From assembly GCA_013314775.1 (NCBI GenBank), contig JABUFB010000008.1, positions 725,036 through 789,035 on the forward strand: a stretch of DNA of 64,000 nt. Direction: 5' to 3'. Numbering within the stretch: the stretch's first letter is position 1; each line of letters starts with the position of its first letter. The notes under the pieces are model-generated. The model ran no database searches. It was not told the origin of the DNA and was given only the letters and a program-made list of their open reading frames with translations. A program made the translations under genes and the position numbers. Below, piece after piece: positions 5,918 to 36,125 of this stretch. The DNA is from Armatimonadota bacterium (GTDB taxonomy: Bacteria > Armatimonadota > Zipacnadia > Zipacnadales > JABUFB01).

Positions 5918-5994
5918 CGTCCGGGTTCCCTCCCGGTAACAAGCGCAACGGGCAATGGCCGGCAACGGATCACGACCAGGTCCCGCAGTCCGGC

Positions 5995-8728: not shown

Positions 8729-10285
8729 TCACGACACAGGTTCATCGGCCATCGCTGCCCGCGCCTCGTCGCGCAATTCGCGCTTGAGGATCTTCCCCGT
8801 CGCCGACTTGGGCAGTTCTGGTCGGAACTCCACGAACCTGGGCACCTTGTAATTGGCCAGGTGAGACTTGCAGTGCTCAATGATCTGAGTCGCGTCAAGC
8901 TGCGTGCCCTCTTTGAGGGACACGTAAGCTTTGACGTCCTCTCCGCGAAGTCTGTTCGGGATGCCCACCACCGCGGCCTCGGCCACGGCTTCCAGGCGGT
9001 ATAGGACATCTTCGACCTCGCGGGAATACACGTTCATGCCACCGACGATGATCATATCCTTCTTGCGATCCACGATTCGCAGGTAACCATCAGCATCCAC
9101 CGTGGCCACGTCGCCGGTGAGCAGCCATCCGTCGCGGATTGTTTCCGCAGTGCGCTCCGGGTCGCGCCAGTAGCCCTTCATCACGTTGCGCCCGCGCACG
9201 CACAGTTCGCCGGGCACCCCCACCGGGGCGATGTTGAAGTCGTCGTCCCGGATGGTGACCTCGATTTCCGGCAGTGGTGGCCCGATGGTGCCGATCCTGC
9301 GCGTCCCATCAGTGCGGTTCACGCTGACCACCGGGGAGGCTTCGGTGGGGCCGTAGCCCTCTATCATATATACTCCGAAGCGCCGCTCGAATCCCTTGAG
9401 CACCTCATCGGGCATTGCCGCGCCGCCGGAGACGCCGATGCGCAGACAGGAGAGGTCGAAGTCGCGGTCGGTCTTCATCCCCAGCATCACCGCGTACATG
9501 CTGGGAACTCCCGCGAACACGGTGCAGCGGCGGCTTTCGAGAGTCTCAAGTACTGACAGCGGCGCGAATTTCGGGATCAAGACCGTATGTGCGCCGAGGC
9601 TCAACGGCAGAACCATGCAGACTGTCGCGCCGAAGGAGTGGAACAACGGCAGGACAGTGCCGAACACATCATTCTCGTTCACATCAATGGCCACGGCGCA
9701 TGAGGCTGCGTCGAACACAAGGTTGTCGTGGGTGAGCATGGCGCCTTTGGGCTGGCCCGTGGTTCCGGATGTGTAGATGAGAACCGCCACATCATCCGGA
9801 CGCGCATCATGGACCGGCGGCGCGCTCTGGGGTGGCTTGAGAAGGCCCTCGAAGCTAACCACGTCGTCGAGCCGGCTCGGGCCGCTGATGATGAGCCGTT
9901 TGAGACAGGACACATTCGTGCGGATCGCAGCCATCACCGGCTCCAGCAGGTTCAGACCGATGAGGGTCTCCGCCTCCGCGTTCGCCACGATGTAGGCCAA
10001 CTCTTCAGGCCCCTGGAGACAGTGGAGCGGAACGACAGTCGCCCCAAGCTGCAGGGCGGCGAAGTATGAAATGATGAATTGGGGACAGTTGGGGAACAGA
10101 ATAGCAACGCGCTGATCCGGCCCGACCCCCAGCTCTGCGAGAGATGCCGCGCACGCTCCGACTGCCCGGGAGAGATCAGCATAGGTGAGTGTCTTGTCCT
10201 CGAAACTGACCGCAGGACGTTCAGGGAACCGCGCCGCAGCGGACAGGAAGGTGGCAGTCAAGCTGGCAGGTGGGCATAGGGACAT
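8729..10285 (-). CDS. AMP-dependent acyl-CoA synthetase/ligase (FadD-like)
   Basis: ATG 10285 (MSLCPPASLT...). Motifs LIYTSGTTGQPKGAML, GYGPTE, TGDVATVDADGYLRIVDRKKD and a C-terminal SATGKILKRELR. Confidence 0.85.
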   Translation of the reverse strand: MSLCPPASLTATFLSAAARFPERPAVSFEDKTLTYADLSRAVGACAASLAELGVGPDQRVAILFPNCPQFIISYFAALQLGATVVPLHCLQGPEELAYIVANAEAETLIGLNLLEPVMAAIRTNVSCLKRLIISGPSRLDDVVSFEGLLKPPQSAPPVHDARPDDVAVLIYTSGTTGQPKGAMLTHDNLVFDAASCAVAIDVNENDVFGTVLPLFHSFGATVCMVLPLSLGAHTVLIPKFAPLSVLETLESRRCTVFAGVPSMYAVMLGMKTDRDFDLSCLRIGVSGGAAMPDEVLKGFERRFGVYMIEGYGPTEASPVVSVNRTDGTRRIGTIGPPLPEIEVTIRDDDFNIAPVGVPGELCVRGRNVMKGYWRDPERTAETIRDGWLLTGDVATVDADGYLRIVDRKKDMIIVGGMNVYSREVEDVLYRLEAVAEAAVVGIPNRLRGEDVKAYVSLKEGTQLDATQIIEHCKSHLANYKVPRFVEFRPELPKSATGKILKRELRDEARAAMADEPVS

Positions 10286-10369
10286 AGCGCAACCTCGGAC
10301 GCAGGCCCCGCGGGGAAACGCGCCGGACAGCCTGCTCGGTTGGAGCACGGCGGAAGCGTGTTGGCGGAC

Positions 10370-10398
10370 AGGATACACCCTGACTCCGAGCCCGTCAA
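10370..10398 (-). promoter_or_regulatory. sigma70-like promoter for the fadD-like operon
   Basis: On the minus strand: TTGACG, 17 nt, TATCCT. This gives a leader of about 78 nt to ATG 10285. Confidence 0.45.
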
Positions 10399-10705
10399 GG
10401 AAGCGCGGCCGTTGGGCAGGACCGTCGGTTTTGCGGAATGCGTGCCGGCCTCGTACGTGGCCAGCGTTCGCTGCCTGCGGTGTTGGGGCCGTGCCGTGTG
10501 CTATCAGGCTCCGTCAGGAGCTGTCCGCCTGTAGCCCCCGTCGGAAAGGAATCCGGGGGCTTCCGCTCCCGTCTACAGGCTGCCGCCCGCGCCGCGGGCT
10601 GTGGGGCAAGGGCTCACGGCGAACGGCGCCCTGAACGGGTATCCGGCCCCAGCCGGCACACATCCAGCAGAATCGATGCTCGTGAAGCGCCTTCGGCCTG
10701 GCTCT

Positions 10706-11461
10706 TCAGCCCATGTGCGCCCCACCATTGATGTCCAAGATGTTCCCGGTCATATGGGTGCAAAGGTCAGATGCGAGATAGACGCAGGCGCGCCCGATGT
10801 CCTCCACAGTGCCCAATCCCAGCGGAATCTCCGAAGACAACTGGGCGATGCGCTTGTCCCCCACTGTCTCATGCAACAACTCCGTCTCCACGATCCCCGG
10901 CGCAACCGCGTTGACGATAATCCCGTACTTTGCCACGTCCCGGGCCAGGGTCATGGTGAAAGCATTGATCCCTCCCTTGCTCGCGGCATAGTGGACGTGG
11001 CCGTATAATGCGCCTCGCCGGGACACAATGGAAGTCATGTTGATGATGCGCCCGCCGCCAAGGTCACGCATGATCGGCACCGCGGCCCGGCAGCACAGGA
11101 AAGTGGATTTCAGGTTTGTGTCGATGATGAAGTCCCAGTCTTCTTCAGTCATCTCCAGAATCGTCTTCGGCTGGGATGTACCCGCATTATTGACCAGCAC
11201 GTCGAGGGAGCCATATTCGGAGCAGACGGCGTCGAACAGACGGGACACATCATCGGCACGGGAGACGTCGGCCTGGAGGACGAGACATGACACCCCGAAC
11301 TCCCGGACCTGGCTTGCGACCGATTCTGCCTGTTCCGCCGAACTGCGGTGGCAGATGGCGATCGAAGCTCCCTCGCGGGCCATCTCCACGGCGATTCCGC
11401 GGCCAATTCCCCGTGACGCGCCGGTGATCAGCGCCACTTTGTCTTTGAGAAGCATGATCAT
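10706..11461 (-). CDS. short-chain dehydrogenase/reductase (FabG-like)
   Basis: TGASRGIGRGIA (TGxxxGxG) and YAASKGG (YxxxK). Its ATG overlaps the upstream stop (ATGA 11458-11461). Confidence 0.85.
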   Translation of the reverse strand: MIMLLKDKVALITGASRGIGRGIAVEMAREGASIAICHRSSAEQAESVASQVREFGVSCLVLQADVSRADDVSRLFDAVCSEYGSLDVLVNNAGTSQPKTILEMTEEDWDFIIDTNLKSTFLCCRAAVPIMRDLGGGRIINMTSIVSRRGALYGHVHYAASKGGINAFTMTLARDVAKYGIIVNAVAPGIVETELLHETVGDKRIAQLSSEIPLGLGTVEDIGRACVYLASDLCTHMTGNILDINGGAHMG

Positions 11462-13482
11462 CTCCTGCCCTTCCGATAGACGAGAACTGCGATAGACTGC
11501 GGGGGTAGGGAGTTGCCCGGTTCGAACCCTGAGAAAGGCGTGGCACCCTCCTCAAACACCCAGCCTTCATGGACTCTGGGCGCGAATTGTACCGGCTCCC
11601 CCGTGTCGTTCCAGCCCACGACCGCCAGGCCGTCGGTGCTCTCGAACCCCTTCACACGGAGGAGGTCGGTGCCCGGCTCGCAGCTGTCCTGGTCGGTGAA
11701 GCGCCCGTTCATGAGAAGCTCGGGCCAGCGCTCCCGCAGGGCAATAAGACGCCGCATATACTCGCCGTAGGCGGGGGCATCGCGCAGGTCTCCACGGCAG
11801 CGCCAGATCTCCACATCGAAGATCCAGCCATGGGTAAATGCCCAGTGCATCCGGCGCTCGTGATCGCGCTCGTCGCGGATCTCACGGGTGCTCAGGATGA
11901 TCTCGGGGAAGGTGTAAAGGAACAGCTCCGGCAGCGCCTGCGGCCCTGGAGACATGCCGTAAGTGCAAGTGTGAACGTAGTCCGCGTGGCGCACCAGGCA
12001 GTCGGAGACCAGTTCAGTCCCGAAGGCCAGGCCGGGCCGCGGATCGACCACCCGCCGGCGCATCTCCTTCATGTTCCGGTCCTTGCCCGGCCCTTGGGCA
12101 AATGCCGGGCCCGGATGCGGGTGGGATTTGTCGAAACACAGGTACGGGACATGTCCGCCCATCTGATCGAAGAAGATGGAATCCGCGCCCAGGTCGGCCA
12201 TGCGCAGACCGATCTCGATGAGCTTCTCGCGCCACTCATCCGTTGACTGGCACGCGGCCGCGAACGACTTGGCGCCGAAGTTCCGCAGATAGGTCCCGTC
12301 GCCCGAGAACTTGTAGTGCTCCCGGTACTCGCTTCCCTGGGAAGTCTTCAGCGAAATGCGCTGCCCCACGCTCTTGTAGAAGTCCGTGTCCACGTCGATG
12401 ATGTGTCCGTTGGCGTAGAGCAAGATCCGGCCGCCGCGTCTGCGCACCTCGGCGATGGCGTCGCGCAGGGCTTGTTCGCCCCCTAGCTCCTCGTCGGCGA
12501 GGTACTCCGGGTAACCGTTGTCATGTCCGCCCCGGAACCAGCCGAAGACCAGCAGAGCGTCGATTCCATACTTCCGCCCTGCTTCGAAGCAGTCAACGAG
12601 GTCCGCGTACCGATAGAAAATCTCGCCATACTGGTGCTTCATGATGATCCGTTGCCAGCCGTGCATGCGGTTGACCCAGTCCGGCCGGGCGGGCTGCGAC
12701 CACCAGACCTTGTCCACCCAGGAACGGTAGAAACGGGCGTCCGTGTGCCAGTCGCCGCGATGCAGGCGGACTACGGAGAGCGGAGCATCCCAGCGCCCGG
12801 ATTCGGTAAAGGGGTATCGTGCGATTCCGGCGGACATCTTGCCGGTGGGGGTGTCCAGCACCTGCAGGAGACCCGTCGTCTGGAACGACGCGTCCAGTGA
12901 GAAGATGGACATCGATGCCCGCTGACCGTAAATGCCGAACCAGGGCATGCTCATGGGCCCGCCCGGATAGAAGCCGCAGTCAAGGATGTGAACCTGATCG
13001 GGGGCCATGTATCCGGTATGCAGGGAAGCCAGGTGCGCCTTCGGGTTGGGTATCCGCCTGCCGAAACCTTCCGGGCGAATGAGAAGATCGCGGGACGGGT
13101 CATCAGACAGGCCTGTGAACAGCCCGATGAGCGGGAACCAGAACTCCTCCACCGTGATGCTGCCGGGGTTGTCCAGCGAGGCGCGGCATTCCAGGCAGTC
13201 GCCGATGATGCGGAACGTCAGCTGAACCGCGAGGGGTACGGGTGCGCCGCCCAGCGAAACGCCATCGTAGACGGCGGCGAGCATATCTTCTTGCTTCTCA
13301 ACGCGCGCGGCAAGAATCGGGTAATCTGCGGCCGCTTCGTGCCGGTTGCCCTTGCCCGCGATGATGCGGAACAGGCCGCGGTCGCCGCTAATCAGCGCCT
13401 CCTCGCCGGGGAATCCGAGTTCGAAACGGGCCCCGTCTTCGCTGACCGCGAACCGGATGTGGCTACTTTGTATCTCGAGCAT
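11458..13482 (-). CDS. large hypothetical protein, possibly a glycoside-hydrolase-like TIM-barrel protein
   Basis: ATG 13482 (MLEIQSSHIRF) behind GAGGTG. 674 aa of well-behaved composition. The central region (DALLVFGWFRGGHDNGYPEY...ILLYANGHIID) resembles GH-like TIM-barrel families. The function is a guess. Confidence 0.6.
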   Translation of the reverse strand: MLEIQSSHIRFAVSEDGARFELGFPGEEALISGDRGLFRIIAGKGNRHEAAADYPILAARVEKQEDMLAAVYDGVSLGGAPVPLAVQLTFRIIGDCLECRASLDNPGSITVEEFWFPLIGLFTGLSDDPSRDLLIRPEGFGRRIPNPKAHLASLHTGYMAPDQVHILDCGFYPGGPMSMPWFGIYGQRASMSIFSLDASFQTTGLLQVLDTPTGKMSAGIARYPFTESGRWDAPLSVVRLHRGDWHTDARFYRSWVDKVWWSQPARPDWVNRMHGWQRIIMKHQYGEIFYRYADLVDCFEAGRKYGIDALLVFGWFRGGHDNGYPEYLADEELGGEQALRDAIAEVRRRGGRILLYANGHIIDVDTDFYKSVGQRISLKTSQGSEYREHYKFSGDGTYLRNFGAKSFAAACQSTDEWREKLIEIGLRMADLGADSIFFDQMGGHVPYLCFDKSHPHPGPAFAQGPGKDRNMKEMRRRVVDPRPGLAFGTELVSDCLVRHADYVHTCTYGMSPGPQALPELFLYTFPEIILSTREIRDERDHERRMHWAFTHGWIFDVEIWRCRGDLRDAPAYGEYMRRLIALRERWPELLMNGRFTDQDSCEPGTDLLRVKGFESTDGLAVVGWNDTGEPVQFAPRVHEGWVFEEGATPFSGFEPGNSLPPQSIAVLVYRKGRR

Positions 13483-13562
13483 CGTCCAATCACCTCGCCG
13501 GGTAGGTTCGTCCCCGGGGGAAGGCAATCCTGCGCGCAAGGCGAAATGACGGATGCAAACCG

Positions 13563-14381
13563 ATGCTGCGAACCTGCGCCGCGCACCGAAAGGGGATCAG
13601 GCCCTTGTCTGACCAACCCACTCTCCGAGAGCGCATTCTGAGTGGCCCCACACTCTACGGGCCATCATTGACGTCTGCATCGCCGGCCGCCGTGGAGATA
13701 GCGGCGCTGGCGGGTTGCGATTTCGTCTGGCTTGAGGTGGAACACTCTTCGCTGGACGTCATGCAGCTGGAGCACCTGTGCCGGGCGGCCGAACTCCACG
13801 GAATCCTTTCACTGGCCCGCACGGCGGACCCCAGCCGCCCCTGGATTCTTCGCCCCCTGGAGGCAGGGGCGAAGATCGTCCTCGTGCCCCAGGTCCATAC
13901 GGTTGAGCAGGCAGCGGCGGTGGCTGAGTGGGCCAAGTTCCCACCTCTGGGCAAGCGCGGGTACAATACGGGCAGTCGCGGCCTGGGTTACGGCGCCATG
14001 GCGACCACTCCCAATGAGATCCTGGACAAGGCCAATCGTGAGACGGTGTTGCTGGTCCAGATCGAGTCCCAGGAGGCACTGGACAACGTGGAGGGCATCG
14101 CGGCGATTGAAGGAGTGGATGGGCTGTTCTACGGGCCGGGTGACATGTCGCTGGACAAGGGCATTCCCTCAGACTGGGACAATGAAGAGCTTCTCGCGGC
14201 TGGAGAACACATCATCCGGACCGCCCGAGCCAACAGGAAGATATCCTCGAGCACCTGCCCCACCATGAACATGGCTGCCCGATGGAAGCAGGCAGGCGCG
14301 AACATGCTGGTCGTAGGTGGCGAACTGGGCCTGCTGCGGAAGGCTTTCATGGATCGCGTGGCCGAAGTCCGCGCACTGTAG
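13563..14381 (+). CDS. HpcH/HpaI-family 2-keto-3-deoxy-acid aldolase
   Basis: AAVEIAALAGCDFVWLEVEHSS and VLVPQVHTVEQA are typical of the family. The start is uncertain: ATG 13563, or TTG 13605 behind GAAAGGGGA. Confidence 0.75.
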   Translation: MLRTCAAHRKGIRPLSDQPTLRERILSGPTLYGPSLTSASPAAVEIAALAGCDFVWLEVEHSSLDVMQLEHLCRAAELHGILSLARTADPSRPWILRPLEAGAKIVLVPQVHTVEQAAAVAEWAKFPPLGKRGYNTGSRGLGYGAMATTPNEILDKANRETVLLVQIESQEALDNVEGIAAIEGVDGLFYGPGDMSLDKGIPSDWDNEELLAAGEHIIRTARANRKISSSTCPTMNMAARWKQAGANMLVVGGELGLLRKAFMDRVAEVRAL

Positions 14382-14401
14382 GCTGCTCGACACGGACGAG
14401 A

Positions 14402-14432
14402 GAGCCCGCCTTCCCAGACCGAAGGCGGGCTC
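14402..14432. terminator. hairpin between convergent genes (possible bidirectional terminator)
   Basis: Perfect 12-bp stem GAGCCCGCCTTC / GAAGGCGGGCTC with a 7-nt loop, between stops 14381 (+) and 14461 (-). Confidence 0.55.
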
Positions 14433-14460
14433 CTATGTGTGTCCGATCGGGTTGAATGCG

Positions 14461-17400
14461 TCAGTCGAACAGGCTGACGATTGCGCTGACGACCCAGAAC
14501 GAGTCACGGAGGGTGCGCCAGAGGTCTCCACGTGCCGGTGCGCGCGGCGGGACATAGAAAATGTCGCCGGGCTTCACCTTGACCGGGTCCGGCACCTTCC
14601 CCTGCCGCAGTTTGGCGAGGTTGATCTCGGTGTGTTCCGTGGTCCCGTCGGGACGCTTCCGGATCATGATCACGCGCTGTTGAGCGCCCGGCGCGAGGGC
14701 AGCGCGGCTGACAATGTCCATGATGCCCCATTCCGGGTCCAGCGGATACGGCCCCGGACGCCCCACGGCGCCCAGCACGTAGATCTCGTCCATTGCCGGC
14801 ACAACCACCACATCGCCGGGCTGCAGGTCCATGGTCTGATCCAGCGCACCCTCGTCCTGCAGGAGCCTCAGGTCCCTGTAGATCGGCTCCTGATCCGGGC
14901 GGTACACGGTCACGCGGGTCAGATCGGCAGTGGCGAGGGGCTGCATGAGCGTGACCACTCGCAGCAGGTCGCGGTTGGCCTTCTCGCGGATATTCACGGC
15001 GCCATTGCGCTGCAGGGCACCGAGGACCATGATGTTATTGACATCGTCCGTCGGCACATAAACCAGATCGCCGGGCTGGAGTTCGAGGTTCTGGGTCATG
15101 TCGCCCTCTTCGACAAGGGCGCGGTAATTGCGGACGATGGCTTCCCCGTCACGATAGATGGTTACGCGGTCCAGGCCGCCTTCGGGATTGGGTGAGGCCA
15201 GAGGCAGCAAGCGTACCAGGTCGCGCTCCTTCGCTCCGTGGATGCTGATCGCGCCGGGCCTCGCCACCTCGCCCGCGAACACCACCGTTTCGGTCGCCAT
15301 GGGCACGTGTACGATATCCCCCGGCTCGAGCATCATGTTCTGCGACGTGTCGCCCTCTTCCTCGAGCCGCGTGAGGTCGCGGACGATTCTCTCGCCCTTG
15401 CGGTAGACGCTGACCCGCGACAGATCGGCGGTGGGCCGATTCGGCCCCGCGAAGGTGACCGTAGCGAACAGGTCATTGCTGCGCCCGACTTCCTGGGGCA
15501 CAACGCCGGAGCGCATGACCTGGCCGGTGATGATGATGCTCCCCGTGCCAAGCTGGGGCACGAGCACCCGGTCGCCGTCTTCGAGAAGCAGTGTCTGGCT
15601 GGTGTCGCCCTGGTCGAAGTAAGCGCGCAGGTTTCGCACGATCACCTCATCGCCCCGATGGACGGTGACATTGGTCAGATCGGCCATGGGGTCCCAGCCC
15701 GCAGCGGTCACTACCCGGGCGAGATCGCGCTGCTCTTCGGTCACCAATTCGATGGTCCCGCGACGCTGGACGGCGCCGGTGATGAGGACGCTCACGGTGT
15801 CCAGGCCCGGGACGAGAATGCGGTCGCCGGGCAGGACCTCGGCATCCACCGGCACCGGCACACCTTCCTCCACTAGACCCTTCAGGTTGTACACGAACTG
15901 CTCGTCACCCCGGAACACTGTGACTCGCTTCAGGTCCGCATTGGGCAGCGGGCCGGATGCCAGCAAGGTATCCACCAGCCTGCGGTTCTCGGGGTCGGAG
16001 ACCCGCACCTGCCCCGCTCGTTGGACCGCGCCAGTGATGAGCGCCGTCCCGCGGTCGATGGGGATGACCACGAGGTCGCCGTCTTCCAGCTGGAGGGTCT
16101 GCGAGGTGTCGCCCTCGTACAGGTACGCCTGAACGTCGCGGGTGATCTTCTCACCGCCGCGATGCACCGTCACCCGGCGCAGGTCGGCGAAAGGAGCCGG
16201 TCCGGATGCGGCGATGAGCCGGGCAAGGTCCCGGGTATCCTCGTCGCCAAGGGCAAGGACGCCGGTGCGTCCTGCGGCGCCGGCCAGGAGAATACTGTCC
16301 TCGTATGCCGGGACCTTGATGATATCGCCGTCCTCCAGCAGGAAGCTCTGGGACAGGTCGCCGGTCTCGTATAGTTTTTTCAGGTCACGCTTGATCTGCT
16401 GTTCGCCCCGGAAGATAGTGACCCTGGACAGATCGGCGTTGGGCATCGGCCCGGCGAGAGTGACCACGCGCAGGAGATCGCGCTGTTTGTCATCGAAGAG
16501 CTGGATGCTGCCGGATCGGGCGACCGCGCCCATGACAAGGACGGTATGCTCAACGCGCGGCACCACCACCACGTCGCCATCCTCAAGCTGCAGTGAGTAG
16601 GCTTCCAGCCCGGTTTCGATGAAGGCCTTGATGTCGCGCTCCGTGGTATTGCCGCCGCGATGGACCTTGACGCGGGTGAGGTCGGCGTTGGGCAGCGGCC
16701 CGGCAAGGGTAACCAGGCGGGCCAGGTCACTCCGCGGGTCATCCGCAACGGTGAGCAGCCCCGCCTGGGCCACCGCACCGGTGATCAGAATATTGCGCAG
16801 CTCGCGGGCGGGGACCGTGATGATGTCTCCGGGCTCGACATACATGGACTGGGTGCGGTCGCCGTCTTGGATCATCGCCAGCAGGTTGCGGACGATCTTG
16901 TTCTGCCCGCGGTGGACGGTAACGTGTTCGAGATCGGCCTGGGGCAGAGGTCCGGCGGCCAAGATCAGGCTCGCGAGGTCGCGGTCAAGCGTTGGCACAA
17001 GCCTCAGCACTCCGCCTCGGCTCAGCGCACCAGTGAGCATGATGCTGTCTTCGACCACGGGGACGCGGATCATGTCCCCGTCTTCCAGGGCGAGAGTGGC
17101 CTGGCGATTGCCTTCCTCGATGTACGGTTTCACATTGACCAGAATCTGTTTGCCACCACGGCTAACCATGACCCGGGTCAAGTCGGCATAGGGCAGCGGA
17201 CCAGACATGAGGATCAGGCGGCCAAGATCGCGCCAGTCATCATCCACGAGGCGCACGATCCCGCCGCGCTCTACGGCGCCTGACAGAACCACGTTCTCGT
17301 CGATCTCCGGCACAACAATGACATCCCCGTCTTCCACAGGGATGCTGTTTTCCATGCGGCCTTCGTCCACCGCGGCCTGCAGATCGCGGATGATGGTCTC

Positions 17401-18996
17401 GCCATTGCGGTGGATGGTGACGCGTCTGAGATTGGAGCCCGTGCCCGGTCCGGAGACGGTGACGATGCGCAGAAGGTCGTGGTCTTCGTCCCGCGCGATC
17501 TGGAGCACTCCCTGGCGGGATACTGCGCCGGTCACAAGCACGCTGTCAACCTCCCGTGCGGGCACCATAACCATGTCGCCGGGTTGGAGGTCGAGATTCT
17601 GAGACAGGTCGCCTTCGTCCATGAGCGCCTGCAGATTGCGGACTATGGTCTCCTTGCCGCGATAGACGGTGACCCGGGTGAGGTCACTCATGGGGCCCGG
17701 GCCGGCGGTTGTGATGATGCGCAGCAGGTCGCGCTCGGTCACCCCGCGCAGGTTGAAAGTCCCGGTTCGCCCCAGCGCTCCCATGACCAGCAGCGTCTGG
17801 GAGACCCCTTCGGGAATCACCAGCACGTCACCGGGCAGCAGCGAGGATTCATCGGGGGCCTGACCAGCTTCGATGAACCGCTGCAGGTCTACACTGATGC
17901 TCTTGCCGGCCCGGATGATCTCCGCGCGGCTCAGATCCGCGGTGGCAGTGGGGCCGCCGGCGGCTGCCAGGCCCTGCAGGACGGGGATGGGGCTCCCCAT
18001 GCGGAAGACTTGAGGGGTGTTGACCTGTCCGACCACCGAAATGCTGCCGGCCTCGTGCACCACCAGTACATCCCCGCCGCGGAGCACATGGTTCTGGCTG
18101 GTACTGCCGCCCTTGAGCAGCGCGTTCAGGTCGATCTCAAGCGGGTCGGAATCGGCACGCAGGAGGATGGCGCGGGAGCGGTCGGCAATGGGAGAGAAGC
18201 CCTGGGACATGCGCAGGGCGTCAAGCACCCGCACTTCGCGGTCCACGGGGAGCAGGAGACTGCCGGGGGCCTGAACCTCCCCGAGGATCATGACTTCCTC
18301 GCGCACCCGAGGAACATAGACGGTGTCGCCATATTCCAGGCGATGTTCGTGCCCAAGACCGCCTTCACCTCGAAGGCCGCTGCAATCTACTTCGATGGGC
18401 TTACCGCCCGGGTGTGTGAGGCGCACCCGGCGCAAGTCAGCGTACGGGCCGGGACCGGCGGCGGCCACGGCGTCGGTGAGCGTGGAGCCAAAGGGCAAGG
18501 TGACCGCCCCGTTGCGGGACAGTTCGCCGGACACGTACACCTTGCGGATGGAATTGATCTCGTCCACGGTCACCTTGACCGACGGTTTTCGTACGAGCGT
18601 GCTGAGACGTTTGACCAAGAACGCCTCGGCTTCGCGCAGGGTCATCCCGCGCAAGCCGACCTGGCCGAGGAGGGGCATGGGGATGGATCCACCGGGGCCA
18701 ATGCGCGCGGCGGTGGAGAGCGTGGGCTCGTTGAAGACCACTATCTGCACCACATCGCCGGCGCTGAGCCGATAGTCGGTATCCACGGAAAAGCGGGGCG
18801 TGAGGGAGCGCACCGGCCCGGCCCCCGCTGTCCGGGACTTTGCTGAGGAGGCAGCCTGCGCGAGCGCTGTATCGCGGGAGGCCTGGTCGTCTTTGAGACT
18901 TGCCGCACAGGCGGTTCCAGCGCTGCAAGATACCAGGAGGGCGACGAGAAGGGCAACCCTTCCGAAGCCGGCCCTAGACGTGGCCCTGCGGAACAT
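14461..18996 (-). CDS. giant outer-membrane polysaccharide export (Wza/OPX)-like protein with 16 SLBB-like repeats
   Basis: ATG 18996 (MFRRATSRAGFGRVALLVALLVSCSAGTACAAS, signal peptide) behind GGGGAGGA. Poly_export-like segment YRLSAGDVVQIVVFNEP...PLLGQV. This is followed by 16 units of 82-85 aa. C-terminal helix LWRTLRDSFWVVSAIVSLFD. Confidence 0.85.
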   Translation of the reverse strand: MFRRATSRAGFGRVALLVALLVSCSAGTACAASLKDDQASRDTALAQAASSAKSRTAGAGPVRSLTPRFSVDTDYRLSAGDVVQIVVFNEPTLSTAARIGPGGSIPMPLLGQVGLRGMTLREAEAFLVKRLSTLVRKPSVKVTVDEINSIRKVYVSGELSRNGAVTLPFGSTLTDAVAAAGPGPYADLRRVRLTHPGGKPIEVDCSGLRGEGGLGHEHRLEYGDTVYVPRVREEVMILGEVQAPGSLLLPVDREVRVLDALRMSQGFSPIADRSRAILLRADSDPLEIDLNALLKGGSTSQNHVLRGGDVLVVHEAGSISVVGQVNTPQVFRMGSPIPVLQGLAAAGGPTATADLSRAEIIRAGKSISVDLQRFIEAGQAPDESSLLPGDVLVIPEGVSQTLLVMGALGRTGTFNLRGVTERDLLRIITTAGPGPMSDLTRVTVYRGKETIVRNLQALMDEGDLSQNLDLQPGDMVMVPAREVDSVLVTGAVSRQGVLQIARDEDHDLLRIVTVSGPGTGSNLRRVTIHRNGETIIRDLQAAVDEGRMENSIPVEDGDVIVVPEIDENVVLSGAVERGGIVRLVDDDWRDLGRLILMSGPLPYADLTRVMVSRGGKQILVNVKPYIEEGNRQATLALEDGDMIRVPVVEDSIMLTGALSRGGVLRLVPTLDRDLASLILAAGPLPQADLEHVTVHRGQNKIVRNLLAMIQDGDRTQSMYVEPGDIITVPARELRNILITGAVAQAGLLTVADDPRSDLARLVTLAGPLPNADLTRVKVHRGGNTTERDIKAFIETGLEAYSLQLEDGDVVVVPRVEHTVLVMGAVARSGSIQLFDDKQRDLLRVVTLAGPMPNADLSRVTIFRGEQQIKRDLKKLYETGDLSQSFLLEDGDIIKVPAYEDSILLAGAAGRTGVLALGDEDTRDLARLIAASGPAPFADLRRVTVHRGGEKITRDVQAYLYEGDTSQTLQLEDGDLVVIPIDRGTALITGAVQRAGQVRVSDPENRRLVDTLLASGPLPNADLKRVTVFRGDEQFVYNLKGLVEEGVPVPVDAEVLPGDRILVPGLDTVSVLITGAVQRRGTIELVTEEQRDLARVVTAAGWDPMADLTNVTVHRGDEVIVRNLRAYFDQGDTSQTLLLEDGDRVLVPQLGTGSIIITGQVMRSGVVPQEVGRSNDLFATVTFAGPNRPTADLSRVSVYRKGERIVRDLTRLEEEGDTSQNMMLEPGDIVHVPMATETVVFAGEVARPGAISIHGAKERDLVRLLPLASPNPEGGLDRVTIYRDGEAIVRNYRALVEEGDMTQNLELQPGDLVYVPTDDVNNIMVLGALQRNGAVNIREKANRDLLRVVTLMQPLATADLTRVTVYRPDQEPIYRDLRLLQDEGALDQTMDLQPGDVVVVPAMDEIYVLGAVGRPGPYPLDPEWGIMDIVSRAALAPGAQQRVIMIRKRPDGTTEHTEINLAKLRQGKVPDPVKVKPGDIFYVPPRAPARGDLWRTLRDSFWVVSAIVSLFD
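14542..18549 (-). repeat. coding tandem array: 16 SLBB-like units with a period of about 250 bp
   Basis: Unit starts (h-x-[ILV]-x-G-x-[VAL]) fall at ORF residues 197, 279, 363, 446, 530, 613, 696, 780, 863, 946, 1029, 1114, 1198, 1282, 1366 and 1449. Each unit carries DL-x-RV-x-[VI]-x-R and GD-x-[IV]-x-VP. The units are divergent at protein level, so this is not a recent DNA duplication. Confidence 0.85.
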
Positions 18997-19144
18997 GTAT
19001 TCGTCCTCCCCAGCTCGAGGTGTCTGCATTGTGCGTCGTCTATAGACTGCAATTCTTGCGGCAATTCGCCGCTGGGGTCGGCAGGCGGGCACAAATGGCG
19101 CCCGAAGCACGCCGCTGATATTATAGCACACTCATTCTGCCTAG

Positions 19145-19174
19145 ACTATAGAGGGCCCCTCTTGGACAAGTCAA
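19145..19174 (-). promoter_or_regulatory. sigma70-like promoter for the giant export gene
   Basis: On the minus strand: TTGACT, 18 nt, TATAGT, in an AT-rich patch. This implies a leader of about 140 nt to ATG 18996. Confidence 0.5.
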
Positions 19175-19200
19175 GCCCGCCGGCGGGCTACGAGGTCTGT

Positions 19201-19229
19201 TTGACTCGATCCAGCGTCTACCGTATACT
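19201..19229 (+). promoter_or_regulatory. sigma70-like promoter for recJ and downstream genes
   Basis: TTGACT, 17 nt, TATACT, about 35 nt upstream of ATG 19263. Confidence 0.55.
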
Positions 19230-19262
19230 GCCCCCAAAGGAAGACACTGGAATTCGGTACAT

Positions 19263-20975
19263 ATGCCTGCATGCAGACCCGCATGGGACGCCGCGCCACG
19301 AGACTTTGATTTTGAAGCGCAGATGGCCCGCGAACTGGGGATTCACCCCGTCATAGCGGGCGTCATGCGCCGCCGCGGCATAACCACTCCAGACCACGCA
19401 CGCCGCTTCCTCCACCCCGATCTGGCCGACCTGCATGACCCGTTCCTATTGCCCGATATGGACATCGCGGCCCGGAGAATCGTGAAGGCCATCGAAAACC
19501 ATGAGACCGTCCTGGTCCACGGTGACTACGATGTGGATGGAATTACCGGTTCTGCCCTGATGGTCCGTTTCCTGTCGAAACTGGGGGCGGACGTGCAGTA
19601 TCACTTGCCCCATCGTCAGATTGACCACTATGGGCTGAGCGTGGAGGCGATGCGCGAGGCCGCGCGGGTGGGTGCCCATCTCGCCATAGCGGTGGATTGC
19701 GGTGTCACCGGCTTCGAGGCGGTGGCGGAGGGGCGGCGCCTGGGCATGGACGTGGTGGTCATCGATCACCACGAGCCCGAGGACAGACTACCCAACGCCA
19801 ACGCCATCGTTGATCCAAAGCGCGCCGACTCCACCTATCCCGAGCGCGATCTGGCCTCTGTCGGCCTCTGCTTCAAGACCGCGTCGGCCGTTTGTACCCT
19901 CATGGACGTGCCCCAGGAATCCCTGCAGAGGGCATTCCTGGACCTGGTGGCCATGGGAACCATAGCCGACGTGGTCCCGCTCATCGGCGAGAACCGCATC
20001 CTGGCCAGTCACGGCTTGAGGAGCATGGCAGGCACGCGCAAAGTGGGGCTGCAAGCTCTGATGCGTCTGTGCAATGCAGACGGAGACATCCGAGCTTCCG
20101 ACGTGGCCTTCCGTATTGCCCCGCGGATGAACGCCGCCGGGAGAATGGGCGACGCGACTGATGCCCTGGAATTGCTTCTCACGAATGACCCGGAGACTGC
20201 CACCCGGTTGGCTCTCTCCCTGGATAACGCGAACCGCGAGCGTCAGCGGGTCCAGGAGCGCATCTATCGGGATGCCCTGGAGATGATAGAGGGAGAGGTG
20301 GACTTCGAGAACGAGCACGTCGTGGTGCTGGCGTCTCCTGAATGGCACGTGGGCGTTGTGGGCATTGTGGCCTCGAAAATCATGGAGACCCACTCGCGCC
20401 CGACGATCCTCATGGTGCAGGAAAACGGTGAGGCCCGGGGATCCGCACGGAGCGTTCATGGGTTCGATATCAGCCAGGCCCTGCAGGGGTGCACCGACCT
20501 GCTGCTGTCCCACGGTGGGCATGCCCTGGCGGCCGGGATGAGTCTGCGCATTGAGAACCTGCCGGACTTCCGCCGACGCCTGAACTGCCTCGCCGCCGAA
20601 TCCCTGCGTTTGGAGGACCTTCAGCCCAGATTGGAGACCGACGCTGAGGTGTTGCTGGACGAGGTGGACGCGGAACTGCTTGAGGGTCTGGCGCAGCTTG
20701 AGCCCTTCGGGCAGGCGAACCCGGCGCCCTTGTTCGTGACCCACGGGGTGGATGTGCTGGATGTCCGGACTGTCGGAAGGGACAACCAGCACCTGAAACT
20801 GTTCGTGAGCCAGGGTGACCGCCCGGTGGACTGTATCGGGTTCGGAATGGGTCCTGAAGCCGACTGGATCGACCGGGGATCTACTATCGATATCTGCCAC
20901 ACTCCCGAGATCAATGAGTACAATGGGACCCGAGGGGTCCAACTGCGTCTCCAGGCTGTTCGCGCGGCACGGTAA
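19263..20975 (+). CDS. recJ: single-stranded-DNA-specific exonuclease RecJ
   Basis: DHH-family motifs VLVHGDYDVDGITG, AVDCG, VVVIDHH and GGHALAAG. 570 aa, typical RecJ length. Confidence 0.9.
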   Translation: MPACRPAWDAAPRDFDFEAQMARELGIHPVIAGVMRRRGITTPDHARRFLHPDLADLHDPFLLPDMDIAARRIVKAIENHETVLVHGDYDVDGITGSALMVRFLSKLGADVQYHLPHRQIDHYGLSVEAMREAARVGAHLAIAVDCGVTGFEAVAEGRRLGMDVVVIDHHEPEDRLPNANAIVDPKRADSTYPERDLASVGLCFKTASAVCTLMDVPQESLQRAFLDLVAMGTIADVVPLIGENRILASHGLRSMAGTRKVGLQALMRLCNADGDIRASDVAFRIAPRMNAAGRMGDATDALELLLTNDPETATRLALSLDNANRERQRVQERIYRDALEMIEGEVDFENEHVVVLASPEWHVGVVGIVASKIMETHSRPTILMVQENGEARGSARSVHGFDISQALQGCTDLLLSHGGHALAAGMSLRIENLPDFRRRLNCLAAESLRLEDLQPRLETDAEVLLDEVDAELLEGLAQLEPFGQANPAPLFVTHGVDVLDVRTVGRDNQHLKLFVSQGDRPVDCIGFGMGPEADWIDRGSTIDICHTPEINEYNGTRGVQLRLQAVRAAR

Positions 20976-21032
20976 GCTCATCGCAGGCCTCAGCGCGGAA
21001 CAGCTCTGGTTCGGAGGATCCGAGGTGCCGAT

Positions 21033-22049
21033 TTGAAGGCCCCCGTCAACCAGGCGGTCCTGCTGGTGGGTGGACAGGGCACGCGATTGCGTCCCCTGAC
21101 CTGTGATCGCCCCAAGGCTCTCGTACCCTTGTTGAATGAGCCCCTGCTGGCCTGCGAACTGCGCCTTCTGGCACGCCACGGCATCACTAACGTGATCCTT
21201 TCCGTTGGTTACCGCGCGCGCGTCCTCCAGGATGCGCTGGGGGATGGGTCGCGCTGGGGGGTAAGGCTGCGGTACGTTGAGGAGCCTTCGGCACTGGGAA
21301 CCGCCGGCGGTCTGCGGAATGCCCTGGAGCTGCTGGATGGGCCCTTCGTGGCGATGAATGGGGACCTGGTGTACGACGTAGACCTGTCCGCCTTTGCCGA
21401 AGCCCACCTGCGAGCGGGCGCGATGGTGAGTTTCTGCCTGCGGCGAGTGGAGGATATACGGCGTTTCGGGCTGATCCAGTGCGACGATTCCGGTCGAGTC
21501 GTGGCCTTCCGCGAAAAGCGGGAGGTCGACGAGACCGGACGGAATACTGTGAACAGCGGGGTCTATCTCATGGACCCGGAAGCATTGCTGCGGGTGCCCG
21601 CGGGCGTTGAGTGGTCCAACGAGACCCAGCTGTTTCCCGGTCTGCTCCAGGAAGGCTGCCTCTTGCTGGGGTTCATGCCCGAACAACAGGGCTACTGGGC
21701 TGACGTGGGCACAGTAGAGTCGTACCTGCAGACCAGCCGCGACCTGCTGCGAGGCGCAATTCCGTGGATGCGGGGAGCGGTCGCCACATCTGTCATGGGA
21801 CGCACCGAGGACATCGAACAACCGGTGGGGCTGGCTGAAGGCGTACGCATTGAGGATGGCGCACGAGTAGGGCCGGAGGTGTGCATTGGCGCGCGTGGCA
21901 CAGTCGGCGCCGGGGCGCGCATCCAGGCGTCTATCCTGTGGGAAGATGTGACCATTGGGCCCAATGCCCATATTCACAACTGCATAATCGGCGCCGGGGT
22001 GACCATCGGCGCGGGCTGCAAGTACAGTGGAAAGGTCGTCGTCCGGTGA
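21033..22049 (+). CDS. NDP-sugar pyrophosphorylase (sugar-1-phosphate nucleotidyltransferase with left-handed beta-helix C-terminus)
   Basis: TTG start behind GAGGTG. N-terminal LLVGGQGTRLRPLT motif. C-terminal hexapeptide-like repeats (IGARGTVGAGARIQASIL...IGAGVTIGAG). Confidence 0.85.
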   Translation: MKAPVNQAVLLVGGQGTRLRPLTCDRPKALVPLLNEPLLACELRLLARHGITNVILSVGYRARVLQDALGDGSRWGVRLRYVEEPSALGTAGGLRNALELLDGPFVAMNGDLVYDVDLSAFAEAHLRAGAMVSFCLRRVEDIRRFGLIQCDDSGRVVAFREKREVDETGRNTVNSGVYLMDPEALLRVPAGVEWSNETQLFPGLLQEGCLLLGFMPEQQGYWADVGTVESYLQTSRDLLRGAIPWMRGAVATSVMGRTEDIEQPVGLAEGVRIEDGARVGPEVCIGARGTVGAGARIQASILWEDVTIGPNAHIHNCIIGAGVTIGAGCKYSGKVVVR

Positions 22050-23191
22050 GCCACCAAGATCCATTGCTGATGATTCCAGGGCCGACCAATCTGCCGCCAG
22101 AAGTTCGAGCGGCCATCGGCGCGCCCAGCATGTACCACCGCGGGCCGGGCTTCATGGGGCTCCTCGACGGCTGCAACCGGGGCCTGCAGGTAGTTTTCCA
22201 GACGAAGAACGACGTGATCATCCTGGCATCATCGGGTACCGGGGGCGTTGAGGCGGCCATCGTCAATCTCATCAACCCCGATGACCGGGTGCTTGTGGTG
22301 CGCGGAGGGAAGTTCGGCGAGCGCATGGCCGAGATCGCGGCCCGATTCGGCGCGCTGGTAACGACGCTCGACGTCGAACCCGGGCGAGCCGCCGAGCCCC
22401 AGCAGCTTGCGGATGTACTGGCGCGCAAGCCATTCAAGGCCGTGCTGTTCGTGCAGAACGAGACCTCGACTGGCATCACACAGAACGTCGCTACGCTGGC
22501 AAAGATCGCTCACGATCACCGATGCCTGACCATCGTGGACTGTGTGAGCGGGATGGGCGGGATCCCGGTGCGCACCGACGAATGGGGCTTGGACGCAGTG
22601 ATCTCCGGCTCCCAGAAGGCTTTCATGCTCCCGCCCGGGCTGTCCTTTGTATCTCTCTCGCAGCGAGCCTGGGAGATTGCGGAAAAGAGCAAGACGCCGC
22701 GCTTCTACTTCGACCTGCCCGCCGCGCGGAAGTCACTGGCGAAAGGCCAGACGCCTTTCACCCCCGCCGTCAACCTGATCCAGGGCCTGGGGGCGTCTCT
22801 TGAGCTGATCTTGGGCGAGGGCCTTGAGAAAGTGTACGCGCGCCACGCCCGGGCAGGACGTTCGGTGCGTCTGGCAATGCAGGCGCTGGGCCTGGAGCTG
22901 TTTGCGGACCCCGCCTACGCAAGCAATGTGGTGACCGCGATCAGAGCACCTGAGGGAGTCTCGTCCACAGATGTCGTGAAGCGGTTGGCGGCTAACCACC
23001 AGATCGTAATCTCCGACGGCCAGAGTGAACTGAAAGGTAAGATTTTCCGAATAGGGCATATGGGCTGGTTCGACGAGGAGATGCTGGCGCGCACGGTGCG
23101 TGCAACGGGCGAGACTTTAGCCGGTCTGGGGCATTCGTGCGACCCGCAGGCCGGCGAGGAAACGCTGCGGGAGGTCTGGGCACAGGCATGA
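22046..23191 (+). CDS. class V aminotransferase (AGXT/serine-pyruvate type; probable phosphoserine aminotransferase role)
   Basis: GTG 22046 overlaps the upstream TGA (GTGA). N-terminus LLMIPGPTNLPPEV; PLP-lysine context ISGSQKAFMLPPG. Lies immediately upstream of, and overlapping, serA. Confidence 0.8.
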   Translation: MSHQDPLLMIPGPTNLPPEVRAAIGAPSMYHRGPGFMGLLDGCNRGLQVVFQTKNDVIILASSGTGGVEAAIVNLINPDDRVLVVRGGKFGERMAEIAARFGALVTTLDVEPGRAAEPQQLADVLARKPFKAVLFVQNETSTGITQNVATLAKIAHDHRCLTIVDCVSGMGGIPVRTDEWGLDAVISGSQKAFMLPPGLSFVSLSQRAWEIAEKSKTPRFYFDLPAARKSLAKGQTPFTPAVNLIQGLGASLELILGEGLEKVYARHARAGRSVRLAMQALGLELFADPAYASNVVTAIRAPEGVSSTDVVKRLAANHQIVISDGQSELKGKIFRIGHMGWFDEEMLARTVRATGETLAGLGHSCDPQAGEETLREVWAQA

Positions 23192-24777
23192 GGCCGCGGG
23201 TACTGGTCTGTGACAATGTGGCGGCGTCCGGCTTGGAGTTTCTGCGCACCCGAGCAGAAGTGGTGGAAGCCGGCAGCCTGGACGAACAGGCGCTGATTGC
23301 GGCCCTGGATGGCTGCCAGGCTCTCATCGTCCGCAGCGCAACGAAAGTAACCGCGCCCGTGTTTGAAGCCTGCCGGGGCCTGAAAGTGGTGGCTCGCGCC
23401 GGCGTGGGTGTTGATAACATTGATATCGAGGCTGCCACGCGCTGGGGGGTGCTGGTGGTCAACAGCCCCGCGGGGAACGTGCTGGCCGCGGCCGAGCACA
23501 CCCTGGCAATGCTGCTTGCTGCCGCGCGAAACATCCCGCAGGCCGATGCATCAATGAAACAGGGGCGGTTCGACCGCAAGAGCTTCATAGGCCGTCAAGT
23601 CCTGGGCAAGACGCTGGGGATCGTGGGCCTGGGAAACATCGGGACCGAGGTCGCTCGAAGGGCGAGAGCTCTCGGGATGAACGTCGTCGCCTTCGACCCC
23701 TACGCCTCCGAGGAACATGTGCGCAAACTCGGAGCCACCTCTGCCCCACTCCATGAGCTGCTGGCCCAGAGCGACTTTCTGACCGTACACGTGCCGCTGA
23801 CAGACGAGACCCGGGGCCTGATCGGGGCGCGTGAACTGGATCTGCTGCCCGACCATGCCGTGGTCGTCAACTGTGCGCGGGGAGGGATCATCGACGAAAA
23901 CGCGCTTCTTGAGGCGCTTCAGGCGGGCACGGTCGCCGGAGCCGCGCTAGATGTTTTCGTCGGCGAGCCCGACGTGAACGCGAGCCTCGTGGGGCACCCT
24001 CGTGTCATCGCGACACCGCACCTGGGCGCCTCCACGAGTGAGGCCCAGGAGACGGTTGTTCTGGACGCGGCGTCGCAGGTGATGGATGTACTGGCCGGCT
24101 TGCCTCCCAGTTCGCCGGTGAATGTGCCCGCCCTGCCCGCAGAGCTGATGGACCAGCTCAGCCCGTATCTGCTTGTTGCCAGGCATCTGGGGACCCTCGC
24201 GAATGTGCTGGTGACCGGCGCCGCTCGGTCGGTGAAGGTGGATGCAGGGGCAGGCGCGCCAGTTCAGGGCATTCCGCTCCTGGCACACACCATCGTGGCG
24301 CGGATGCTGTCGGGGAAGATCGACCAGCGGGTGAACGAGGTGAACGCTCCAGTAGTTGCGCGTGAGCGCGGCATCGAGGTGCTTCACGGCGCACTGGCCG
24401 AGGACCCGGGGTATTCGCGCTATCTTGAGGCCGGCATTGTGGGTGAAGACTTTGCCTATGAGCTCGCGGGAGCTGTGCTGGAAGGGGACCAGCCCAGAAT
24501 CCTGCGCATCGCGGGCTATGCAGTGGATCTACGCCCTGAAGGCAGGATTATTCTCGTCTGGAAGGACCGGCCGGGGACGCCCGGATTTATCGGTGCGGTG
24601 GGCACGACCCTCGGTGATGCGGGGGTGGGAATTGCCAGCATCCAGGTTGGCCATGAGATCATTGATGACCGCGGCCTATTGGTGATCCGAGTTCTGCAGG
24701 AACCATCGTCCGAGGTGCTTCAGGCAATCCGTGAGCACCCGGACGTCGCGAGGCTGGAGACGGTGGTTTTCGACTGA
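23188..24777 (+). CDS. serA: D-3-phosphoglycerate dehydrogenase, long form with C-terminal ACT domain
   Basis: ATG 23188 overlaps the upstream stop (ATGA). MRPRVLVCD..., NAD motif GIVGLGNIGTEVA, catalytic region TPHLGAST. 529 aa with an ACT-like tail. Confidence 0.9.
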   Translation: MRPRVLVCDNVAASGLEFLRTRAEVVEAGSLDEQALIAALDGCQALIVRSATKVTAPVFEACRGLKVVARAGVGVDNIDIEAATRWGVLVVNSPAGNVLAAAEHTLAMLLAAARNIPQADASMKQGRFDRKSFIGRQVLGKTLGIVGLGNIGTEVARRARALGMNVVAFDPYASEEHVRKLGATSAPLHELLAQSDFLTVHVPLTDETRGLIGARELDLLPDHAVVVNCARGGIIDENALLEALQAGTVAGAALDVFVGEPDVNASLVGHPRVIATPHLGASTSEAQETVVLDAASQVMDVLAGLPPSSPVNVPALPAELMDQLSPYLLVARHLGTLANVLVTGAARSVKVDAGAGAPVQGIPLLAHTIVARMLSGKIDQRVNEVNAPVVARERGIEVLHGALAEDPGYSRYLEAGIVGEDFAYELAGAVLEGDQPRILRIAGYAVDLRPEGRIILVWKDRPGTPGFIGAVGTTLGDAGVGIASIQVGHEIIDDRGLLVIRVLQEPSSEVLQAIREHPDVARLETVVFD

Positions 24778-24778
24778 T

Positions 24779-26466: not shown

Positions 26467-26521
26467 CCACACGCGCAGCGCATACCACATGAAATCTGTC
26501 CGCTTTCGGGAGGCGAGTTGG

Positions 26522-27052: not shown

Positions 27053-27078
27053 AGCACACGCATAGAAGGGGACAGACC

Positions 27079-28716
<1,638 letters not shown>

Positions 28717-28835
28717 GGGATTCGCCATAAGAACGTAACGCGCAGACTGCGAGGGACAGGGCGTGCCGCCCGTCCTCTTGCCTGACGACCCCGATACTGA
28801 GCCGGACCCATCACGCGTATCATCGGTGATTCACT

Positions 28836-36124: not shown

Positions 36125-36125
36125 G

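Follow-up and report, generated by a model that had tools for sequence, protein, structure and literature searches.

Wza of Escherichia coli (PDB 2J58; Wza–Wzc complexes 9R60–9R69) is made of a signal peptide, one Poly_export domain (D1), two SLBB domains (D2 and D3) and a C-terminal helix (D4). Wza is 140 Å long, with three periplasmic rings and a helical barrel, and the Wza–Wzc complex measures 360 Å (PMC12881504). In the survey of Saidi et al. (2022), Class 1 of the OPX (Wza) family has the structure Poly_export–SLBB(1–14)–Wza_C, and the tables of that work include a number of long OPX proteins that are not discussed in its main text: 1356 aa in Fimbriimonas ginsengisoli (peg_3156), 1154 aa in Chthonomonas calidirosea (peg_1166), 1189 and 1728 aa in Kosmotoga (1728 aa in K. 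pacifica), ~1575 aa in Mesotoga spp. and 937–992 aa in Thermotoga (PMC9603273). Here we analyze a gene for a giant protein of this kind, 1511 aa long and containing 16 SLBB units, which was revealed in a 64-kb stretch of contig JABUFB010000008.1 from an Armatimonadota bacterium. The whole stretch is called the window below. The coding sequence occupies positions 14461–18996 on the minus strand (stop codon at 14461–14463) and has a G+C content at third codon positions (GC3) of 0.80.

Domain Organization of the Giant OPX Protein

The assignment to the Wza/OPX family, proposed in an earlier note made from the sequence alone, was confirmed. In the Pfam analysis a single Poly_export domain (PF02563) was found at aa 71–144 with a score of 66.2 bits (cutoff 28), and the rest of the protein gave 15 SLBB_2 stretches (307 bits in total) and four SLBB stretches, so that the repeats are indeed called as SLBB. 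The NCBIfam models for polysaccharide export also exceeded their cutoffs. Three features of OPX proteins, namely Poly_export, at least one following SLBB domain and a Sec signal peptide, are present.

The protein consists of the four parts recognized in the earlier note: a signal peptide, one Poly_export domain, the SLBB array and a C-terminal helix. The signal peptide (aa 1–31; 18904–18996, minus strand, as for all parts of the gene) has a basic n-region, a hydrophobic core and a type I cleavage site of the A-x-A type (TACA↓AS), which the sequence and the orthologue alignment show to be conserved as A-x-A↓A-[GS]-L. An LVSC lipobox (Cys24) was found only in the window protein and in one relative (P0001). 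Such an anchor would have meant that the protein is tethered to both membranes. Since Cys24 is not conserved and the A-x-A site is, lipidation is unlikely to be a feature of the family, and a lipoprotein anchor was rejected as such. The following linker (aa 32–70; 18787–18903) is rich in Ala, Ser and Pro, poorly conserved among orthologues and predicted to be disordered, with a predicted local distance difference test score (pLDDT) below 50 at residues 1–38 of the model of aa 33–480. It leads into the Poly_export domain, the equivalent of Wza D1 (aa 71–145; 18562–18786).

Cutting the remaining sequence at the motif GD-x-h-x-VP gave 16 consecutive units of 81–85 aa (aa 146–1483), and a hidden Markov model (HMM) of the unit likewise recovered 16. 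Thus the number of units given previously stands, while the reported range of 82–85 aa does not, unit 3 being 81 aa long. The motifs G-x-V, DL-x-RV-x-V-x-R and GD-x-[IV]-x-VP were found in the units as described. There is almost no linker between neighboring units, only a few residues, and pairwise identity over the whole array is 20–53% at the protein level. The units are not equally similar to each other. Units 1–3 (aa 146–395; 17812–18561) are divergent, with 20–37% identity to other units, and unit 1 is the equivalent of Wza D2. Units 4–15 (aa 396–1400; 14797–17811) form an internally related, expanded block with mutual identity of 33–53%. Unit 16 (aa 1401–1483; 14548–14796), the equivalent of Wza D3, is the most divergent (20–27%). 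The protein ends with a basic linker and an amphipathic helix (14464–14547; helix at aa 1492–1510, nt 14467–14523) terminated by a conserved [IL]-F-[DGN]. No tandem repeat was found in the array at the DNA level, which argues that it is old and results neither from recent amplification nor from an assembly artefact.

Comparison With Wza and With the Classes of OPX Proteins

In the comparison with PDB sequences, aa 72–270 aligned to residues 63–271 of Wza, i.e., to D1–D2, with E-values from 3e-22 to 1e-18. The model of aa 33–480 superposed on Wza chain 2j58_A over 264 columns with a root-mean-square deviation (rmsd) of 5.6 Å, so the protomer geometry of D1 and two SLBB domains is similar in both proteins. 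At the other end, a profile built from the last 279 residues aligned the final part of unit 15 and the whole of unit 16 to the final part of D2 and the whole of D3 of Wza (E = 1.4e-13). This alignment stops at the Wza motif SRWNR, the Trp of which pairs with the invariant W1493. A direct match of the tail to Wza D4 was not obtained with the single sequence, and the profile reached its first Trp only. Units 4–15 have a consensus (GD-x-SQN-x-x-L-x-PGD-h-h-x-VP) that is essentially the motif GDLNQNRLLYPGDILYVP of Wza D2, and the best fold matches of the C-terminal model were Wza, GfcC and WzaB.

The protein thus has the anatomy of Wza with an insertion: D1, fifteen D2-like units, one D3-like unit and a shortened D4. 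Since its N-terminus matches D1–D2 and unit 16 aligns to D3, it can be read as a Wza with about 14 additional D2-like rings. The order of signal peptide, single Poly_export domain, SLBB domains and C-terminal helix is the same in both; E. coli Wza has two SLBB domains and the window protein has 16, and the latter has no conserved lipobox, no Pfam Wza_C domain and no wzc, wzx or wzy nearby. With a linker of only ~40 aa, it would also have no N-terminal strands threading back along the stack.

The hydrophobic or amphipathic C-terminal helix noticed earlier is real as a conserved element. The segment LWRTLRDSFWVVSAIVSLFD is retained among orthologues, with W1493 and R1497 invariant and F1510 nearly so, and the tail that follows unit 16 and a short basic stretch has the pattern W-x-x-[IL]-R-[DE]...[IL]-F-[DGN]. 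AlphaFold2 placed a 19-residue helix at residues 260–278 of the C-terminal model (pLDDT 52–61). In the window protein the hydrophobic moment of this helix is 0.47, a value reached by 2.4% of shuffled sequences; amphipathicity is less clear in some orthologues.

Two further family models have to be mentioned. The module of Class 2, Caps_synth_GfcC (PF06251), had no Pfam match in the window protein. Fold searches did match GfcC (3P42), a result that does not discriminate Class 2, since GfcC itself is composed of two SLBB-like domains and a helix. The XrtA/PEP-CTERM model TIGR03027 scored 296.8 bits (cutoff 180), a score that sums 10 repeat stretches; no exosortase was found in the window, and Exosortase_EpsH and EpsI adjoin the orthologue in only one contig, L086.

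Conservation of the Array

The closest genomes are metagenome-assembled genomes (MAGs) of Armatimonadota, including Armatimonadia and "Ca. Zipacnadia". In one of them, positions 9108–28954 of the window are collinear with contig L001 at ~87% nucleotide identity. Comparison with the orthologue encoded there (94% identical protein) gave a ratio of nonsynonymous to synonymous substitutions (dN/dS) of 0.069 for the whole gene, 0.02–0.12 for each SLBB unit and 0.47 for the signal peptide with the linker. Every unit is therefore under strong purifying selection.

Orthologues with identity down to 47% have 16 units, or 15 after the loss of a single unit, and each unit has its highest similarity to the unit of the same number in other species. 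This preservation of unit number, together with the positional orthology of the units, indicates that the array is old and stable and that its length is maintained.

Distribution of Giant OPX Proteins

To see how common such proteins are, we used a HMMER search of 1.84 billion cluster representatives (clusters at 50% identity), in which 20,862 relatives were found at E ≤ 0.001. Among the best 150 of these 20,862 relatives, 31 are at least 1200 aa long, and the numbers with at least 12, 14 and 16 units are 28, 15 and 8, respectively. The longest array among them contains 28 units in a protein of 2313 aa. The giants that could be named (12–28 units) come from Armatimonadota, Limnochordia, other Bacillota and one alphaproteobacterium.

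The view of the protein as exceptional in kind therefore has to be given up: 12 units or more were found in at least 28 clusters among the best 150 relatives, and long forms had been tabulated by Saidi et al. (2022). Arrays of at least 15 units are common; they are nevertheless uncharacterized, as we found no paper in the literature describing the properties of any long OPX protein. The proteins tabulated by Saidi et al. resemble the window protein in having Poly_export followed by many SLBB domains, and two of them are from Armatimonadetes. They differ in that they were classed as 2A/2B by fold recognition against GfcC and that most have a Pfam Wza_C match, the window protein having neither Pfam match. 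The window protein is thus a member of a recurrent, tabulated and unstudied group of long OPX proteins and does not represent a new kind of system.

Two further Armatimonadota families with 14 and 16 units were found; the three families of this phylum all have 14–16 units and show no positional orthology with one another. In comparisons between families, units are more similar within a protein (~37% identity) than between families (~29%), and the matrices of unit identity have no diagonal, from which it follows that the giant expansions are independent. That the 16-unit arrays found in Limnochordales and in Armatimonadota go back to a common ancestor was considered and rejected for lack of positional orthology. 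The giants of Limnochordia and other Bacillota (P0015, P0021, P0143 and P0144; 1580–2313 aa, 16–28 units) have the same overall plan, including a VP...W...~20-aa tail, and also belong to diderm Terrabacteria lineages; their units lack positional orthology to those of the window protein, and their genes, unlike the window gene, sit in clusters with Wzz, BY-kinase and CpsB. It should be mentioned that in P0144 and P0021, both from Bacillota MAGs, some units within one protein are 88–96% identical. In these lineages the arrays are therefore still expanding through recent duplications, in contrast to the old and stable array of Armatimonadota.

Genomic Context of the OPX Genes

The absence of partner genes near the OPX gene, claimed in the earlier note, was supported by Pfam scans of the ~50 genes of the 64-kb window, which revealed no partner and only scattered sugar-nucleotide enzymes. 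Likewise, neither a polysaccharide co-polymerase (PCP) nor a Wzx/Wzy or ABC pathway was found within ±10 kb in five orthologue loci. The gene is thus an orphan locally, and this status is only a weak sign of oddity: the published genome of C. calidirosea, an Armatimonadota isolate, is non-operonic (PMC4959169), and relatives of the gene do adjoin polysaccharide genes. The orthologue in L086 (Armatimonadia) is adjacent to Glycos_transf_4, Polysacc_synt_2, EpsI and Exosortase_EpsH. The giants of one MAG of Limnochordales and of a further Bacillota MAG directly adjoin genes for Wzz/GNVR, a BY-kinase-type ATPase and CpsB, which constitute the core of a Wzx/Wzy-type export module.

In three orthologue loci the OPX gene is flanked by a divergent gene for a 423-aa DegT/DnrJ/EryC1 aminotransferase (L081, 8409–9680; L082, 8297–9568; L088, 764–2035). 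The aminotransferases of L081 and L082 are 88% identical to each other, and the OPX proteins of these two contigs are each 57–59% identical to the window protein. A DegT gene is present in the window as well (1535–2881). It was examined as a displaced copy of the flanking gene and rejected: its product has only 33% identity, compared with 88% between L081 and L082, and is a paralogue. Downstream of the OPX gene and on the same strand, L082 (14805–17144) and L088 (10341–12719) encode proteins of 779 and 792 aa without Pfam match.

The window contains a gene for a DUF6785/DUF6784 protein (31266–33275, plus strand) and a Ham1-family gene (35528–36250, minus strand) ~12–17 kb from the OPX gene. 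Near the orthologue in L081 (1–2847) there are likewise a DUF6785 gene and a Ham1-domain gene, which suggests a loose long-range synteny.

A Putative Extended Conduit and Its Alternatives

Family, fold, domain order, selection and the genomic context of relatives were established above; starting from them, we infer that the protein would oligomerize, stack linearly and match a wide envelope in length. As in Wza, several copies (probably eight) would assemble so that each domain forms one ring, and the 17 rings would stack into one continuous tube ~43–56 nm long, if each ring contributes 2.5–3.3 nm, a value that we derived ourselves from the lengths of Wza and Wza–Wzc. With the C-terminal helices in or at the outer membrane, the Poly_export ring would face the inner-membrane co-polymerase, which would pass on the growing polysaccharide. 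The additional rings would exist because the periplasm of the lineage, for which 55 nm was measured in Fervidibacter, is far wider than the ~33 nm bridged by Wza and Wzc in E. coli. Genes for the partners (PCP, Wzx/Wzy or ABC) presumably lie elsewhere in the genome, the usual situation in a phylum with dispersed genomes. On balance, we consider such an extended Wza-type conduit, with a length matched to a wide envelope, to be somewhat more probable than not.

The earlier note held that a stack of this kind would be far longer than a normal periplasm. This is correct for E. coli, but in Fervidibacter sacchari, the sole Armatimonadota cell imaged, cryo-tomography revealed a periplasm of 55.5 ± 3.5 nm and a wall of ~12.5 nm (PMC11535203). 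A periplasm of 55.5 nm beside a tube of 43–56 nm makes an extended periplasmic conduit the economical reading, and the puzzle of a protein too long for its periplasm probably dissolves, if the link to Fervidibacter, which is our own, holds. The toga of Thermotoga maritima is kept ~50 nm away from the peptidoglycan, and its periplasm is crossed by tubes of ~80 × 10 nm (PMC10160955); Thermotogae also carry OPX proteins of 940–1730 aa in the tables of Saidi et al. Limnochordia are diderm (PMC11456536), and a literature search revealed no measurement of their periplasm width. Multiplication of periplasmic rings is known from the PilQ secretin of Thermus thermophilus, in which six stacked rings and a length of 350 Å allow the complex to bridge most of a wide periplasm (PMC5745081). 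The analogy is functional only: both are outer-membrane channels with multiplied ring domains, while the fold and substrate of PilQ are unrelated, its protomers number 13 and its pore is a β-barrel secretin.

Several observations speak against the conduit as drawn here. F. sacchari, the only source of a periplasm measurement in Armatimonadota, belongs to a different class than the window organism. In tomograms, with 34 further species measured by Saidi et al., OPX length was not correlated with the thickness of the periplasm (Pearson coefficient 0.145 for 92 pairs, 21–44 nm; PMC9603273). A general rule by which OPX proteins act as rulers is contradicted by these data for ordinary periplasms, and we keep the argument as one of necessary fit for the giants only. 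A single fixed width of the envelope is hard to square with the range of 13–28 units in the giants of Bacillota and Limnochordia. In the monomer models the confidence between domains is low (predicted template modelling score, pTM, 0.43–0.51), and the C-terminal model fits Wza domain by domain only (rmsd 13–19 Å). The terminal helix is ~19 aa long against ~32 aa in Wza and is modelled with low confidence, and Pfam Wza_C (PF18412) had no match in the 1511-aa protein at E ≤ 1. Finally, no PCP, Wzx, Wzy, ABC-2 transporter, glycosyltransferase or exosortase was found among the genes of the window by Pfam.

The properties of the tail are also the ground for the best of the alternatives, a long OPX protein similar to those of Class 3, which have no domain across the outer membrane and a cognate 18-stranded β-barrel porin encoded nearby. 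In this reading the SLBB stack spans the periplasm without crossing the outer membrane itself, and the short C-terminal helix with its conserved terminal Phe docks on a separate Wzp/GfcD-like β-barrel porin encoded elsewhere. WzaB of Myxococcus xanthus (Class 3; 9N9A) has Poly_export and SLBB like the window protein and a conserved C-terminal aromatic residue, and unit 16 matches it with E = 0.0016; it differs by its single SLBB domain, by being a lipoprotein and by the adjacent β-barrel porin. Its Phe203–Phe204 face the outer membrane, and it binds the porin WzpB (PMC12819527). The terminal [IL]-F conserved in the giant family, the undetected Wza_C, the lack of a D4 match past the first Trp and the shortness and low pLDDT of the helix all agree with docking of this type. 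On the other hand, W1493 aligns with the very Trp that opens Wza D4, a helix of 19 residues (~28 Å) could still cross the hydrophobic core of the membrane, and Saidi et al. give a Pfam Wza_C match for the long OPX proteins of Fimbriimonas, Kosmotoga and Mesotoga. In addition, neither the window nor the five orthologue loci have an adjacent β-barrel gene; by Pfam, no porin-like family was found there, several neighbors being proteins without Pfam match. The tail may work as in Class 1, as a pore-forming helix, or as in Class 3, by docking on a separate porin, and we regard the latter reading of the whole protein as rather unlikely.

An improbable alternative is that the units are flexible beads on a string, a polysaccharide-binding scaffold or chaperone in which their number reflects the capacity for binding polymer and not the width of the envelope. 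It is in keeping with the uncertain inter-domain geometry of the models, with the lack of a general correlation between length and periplasm width, and with the variation of the Bacillota giants (13–28 units, recent duplications). SLBB domains have been described as soluble domains that bind ligands, with a predicted contact to the sugar polymer (PMC9603273), and soluble Class 3 OPX proteins are monomeric (PMC12819527). However, the linkers comprise no more than a few residues, the number and order of units are conserved over deep divergence with strong constraint on each of them, D1 and units 1–2 superpose on the Wza protomer at 5.6 Å, and D1–D2 of Wza alone drive the formation of octamers (PMC12819527).

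For a surface fibre or another use of the fold, options raised in the earlier note, the analysis brought nothing positive. SLBB domains also occur in ComEA. A fibre or adhesin of β-grasp repeats, or a protein for another substrate such as DNA, with no role in polysaccharide export, is very improbable: the likeness of tandem β-grasp arrays to poly-ubiquitin and pilin-like repeats in fold searches, a weak ComEA-like NCBIfam match (E = 1.2e-05, far below cutoff) and the lack of a partner gene in the window are outweighed by the conserved Poly_export domain, a domain order that follows Wza from D1 as far as the D3/D4 junction, the PCP and BY-kinase genes next to giants of other phyla, the Wza topology, which puts all SLBB domains on the periplasmic side of the terminal helix, and the absence of a sortase, autotransporter or pilin signal.

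Expression Signals and Neighboring Genes

The open reading frame on the minus strand extends over 14461–19131. Its true start is the ATG at 18996, since this codon is preceded by GGAGG (19005–19009) with a spacer of 8 nt and all orthologues align from that Met. A promoter-like sequence TTGACT-18 nt-TATAGT is located at 19174–19145 (minus strand), with 10 of 12 matches to the consensus. Thus a putative promoter of its own and a leader of ~140 nt, as suggested before, can be assigned, the promoter being only a consensus match. An alternative extended −10 element, TGCTATAAT, can be read at 19120–19128 (minus strand), and the 5′ leader, including the Shine–Dalgarno sequence, would cover ~115–140 nt within 18997–19138 (minus strand). 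In the promoter scan two sites were found in the region compared with 0.7 expected from shuffled sequences. A promoter-like site for recJ at 19201–19229 (plus strand) also has 10 of 12 consensus matches and is back-to-back with that of the OPX gene. A regulatory RNA in the leader was rejected: no Rfam family reached the gathering score nearby, and the leader folds no better than shuffled sequences (z-score −1.14).

The flanking genes are those noted previously, a convergent HpcH/HpaI aldolase gene (13563–14381, plus strand) and a divergent recJ (19263–20975, plus strand), and the OPX gene looks monocistronic. Between the OPX and aldolase genes, past the OPX stop codon, there is a perfect GC-rich hairpin of 12 bp, GAGCCCGCCTTC-GGTCTGG-GAAGGCGGGCTC (14402–14432, minus strand). 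It was not called by the terminator scan because it has no U-tract.

Several other genes of the window should be mentioned. Pilin-like proteins with an N-terminal methylation motif and DUF1559 are encoded at 3850–4503 and 62239–63111 (both plus strand), and a similar gene is located near the OPX gene in L086. A 167-aa cupin (5462–5965, minus strand) matches dTDP_sugar_isom and, also above cutoff, Polysacc_synt_C, the C-terminal domain of flippases. An N-acetylmuramoyl-L-alanine amidase with AMIN and a copper-amine-oxidase-N1-like domain is encoded at 37859–39502 (minus strand), and there is a full-length gene for transfer-messenger RNA (tmRNA; 39645–39990, minus strand; RF00023, 184 bits, E = 2.6e-73). 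At 48186–49931 (minus strand) there is a gene for a membrane-fusion protein of the HlyD family with a coiled-coil-like stretch of ~225 aa, rich in Ala, Glu and Arg, between the lipoyl half-domains. This stretch is probably longer than the usual hairpins, and it may be a further hint that the window organism has a wide periplasm.

Implications

As it stands, the protein is an ordinary member of its family with an extreme but tabulated architecture, and the finding is of value for a hypothesis that can be tested, namely that the number of rings is linked to the width of the envelope, and not as a new system. A broader proposal, which we put forward as possible though doubtful, is that long OPX proteins are single-protein periplasmic conduits that arose independently in diderms with a wide periplasm (Armatimonadota, Thermotogae and Limnochordia), with the number of rings set by the width of the envelope. 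They would form tubes of ~10 nm × 45–80 nm through which polysaccharide would pass from the machinery in the inner membrane to the surface of the cell, and they may correspond to some of the ~80 × 10 nm tubes of Thermotoga, which are currently assigned to pilus or type II secretion system machines (PMC10160955).

If the ring stack is real, it would be an extreme example of how a secretion channel can be lengthened, by multiplication of its domains, to suit an unusual envelope, and it would explain how polysaccharide passes a 50-nm periplasm with a wall of ~12 nm. Candidate densities could then be pointed out in tomograms that already exist, and the number of units would become a proxy, readable from sequence, for the width of the periplasm in uncultured diderm Terrabacteria and Thermotogae.

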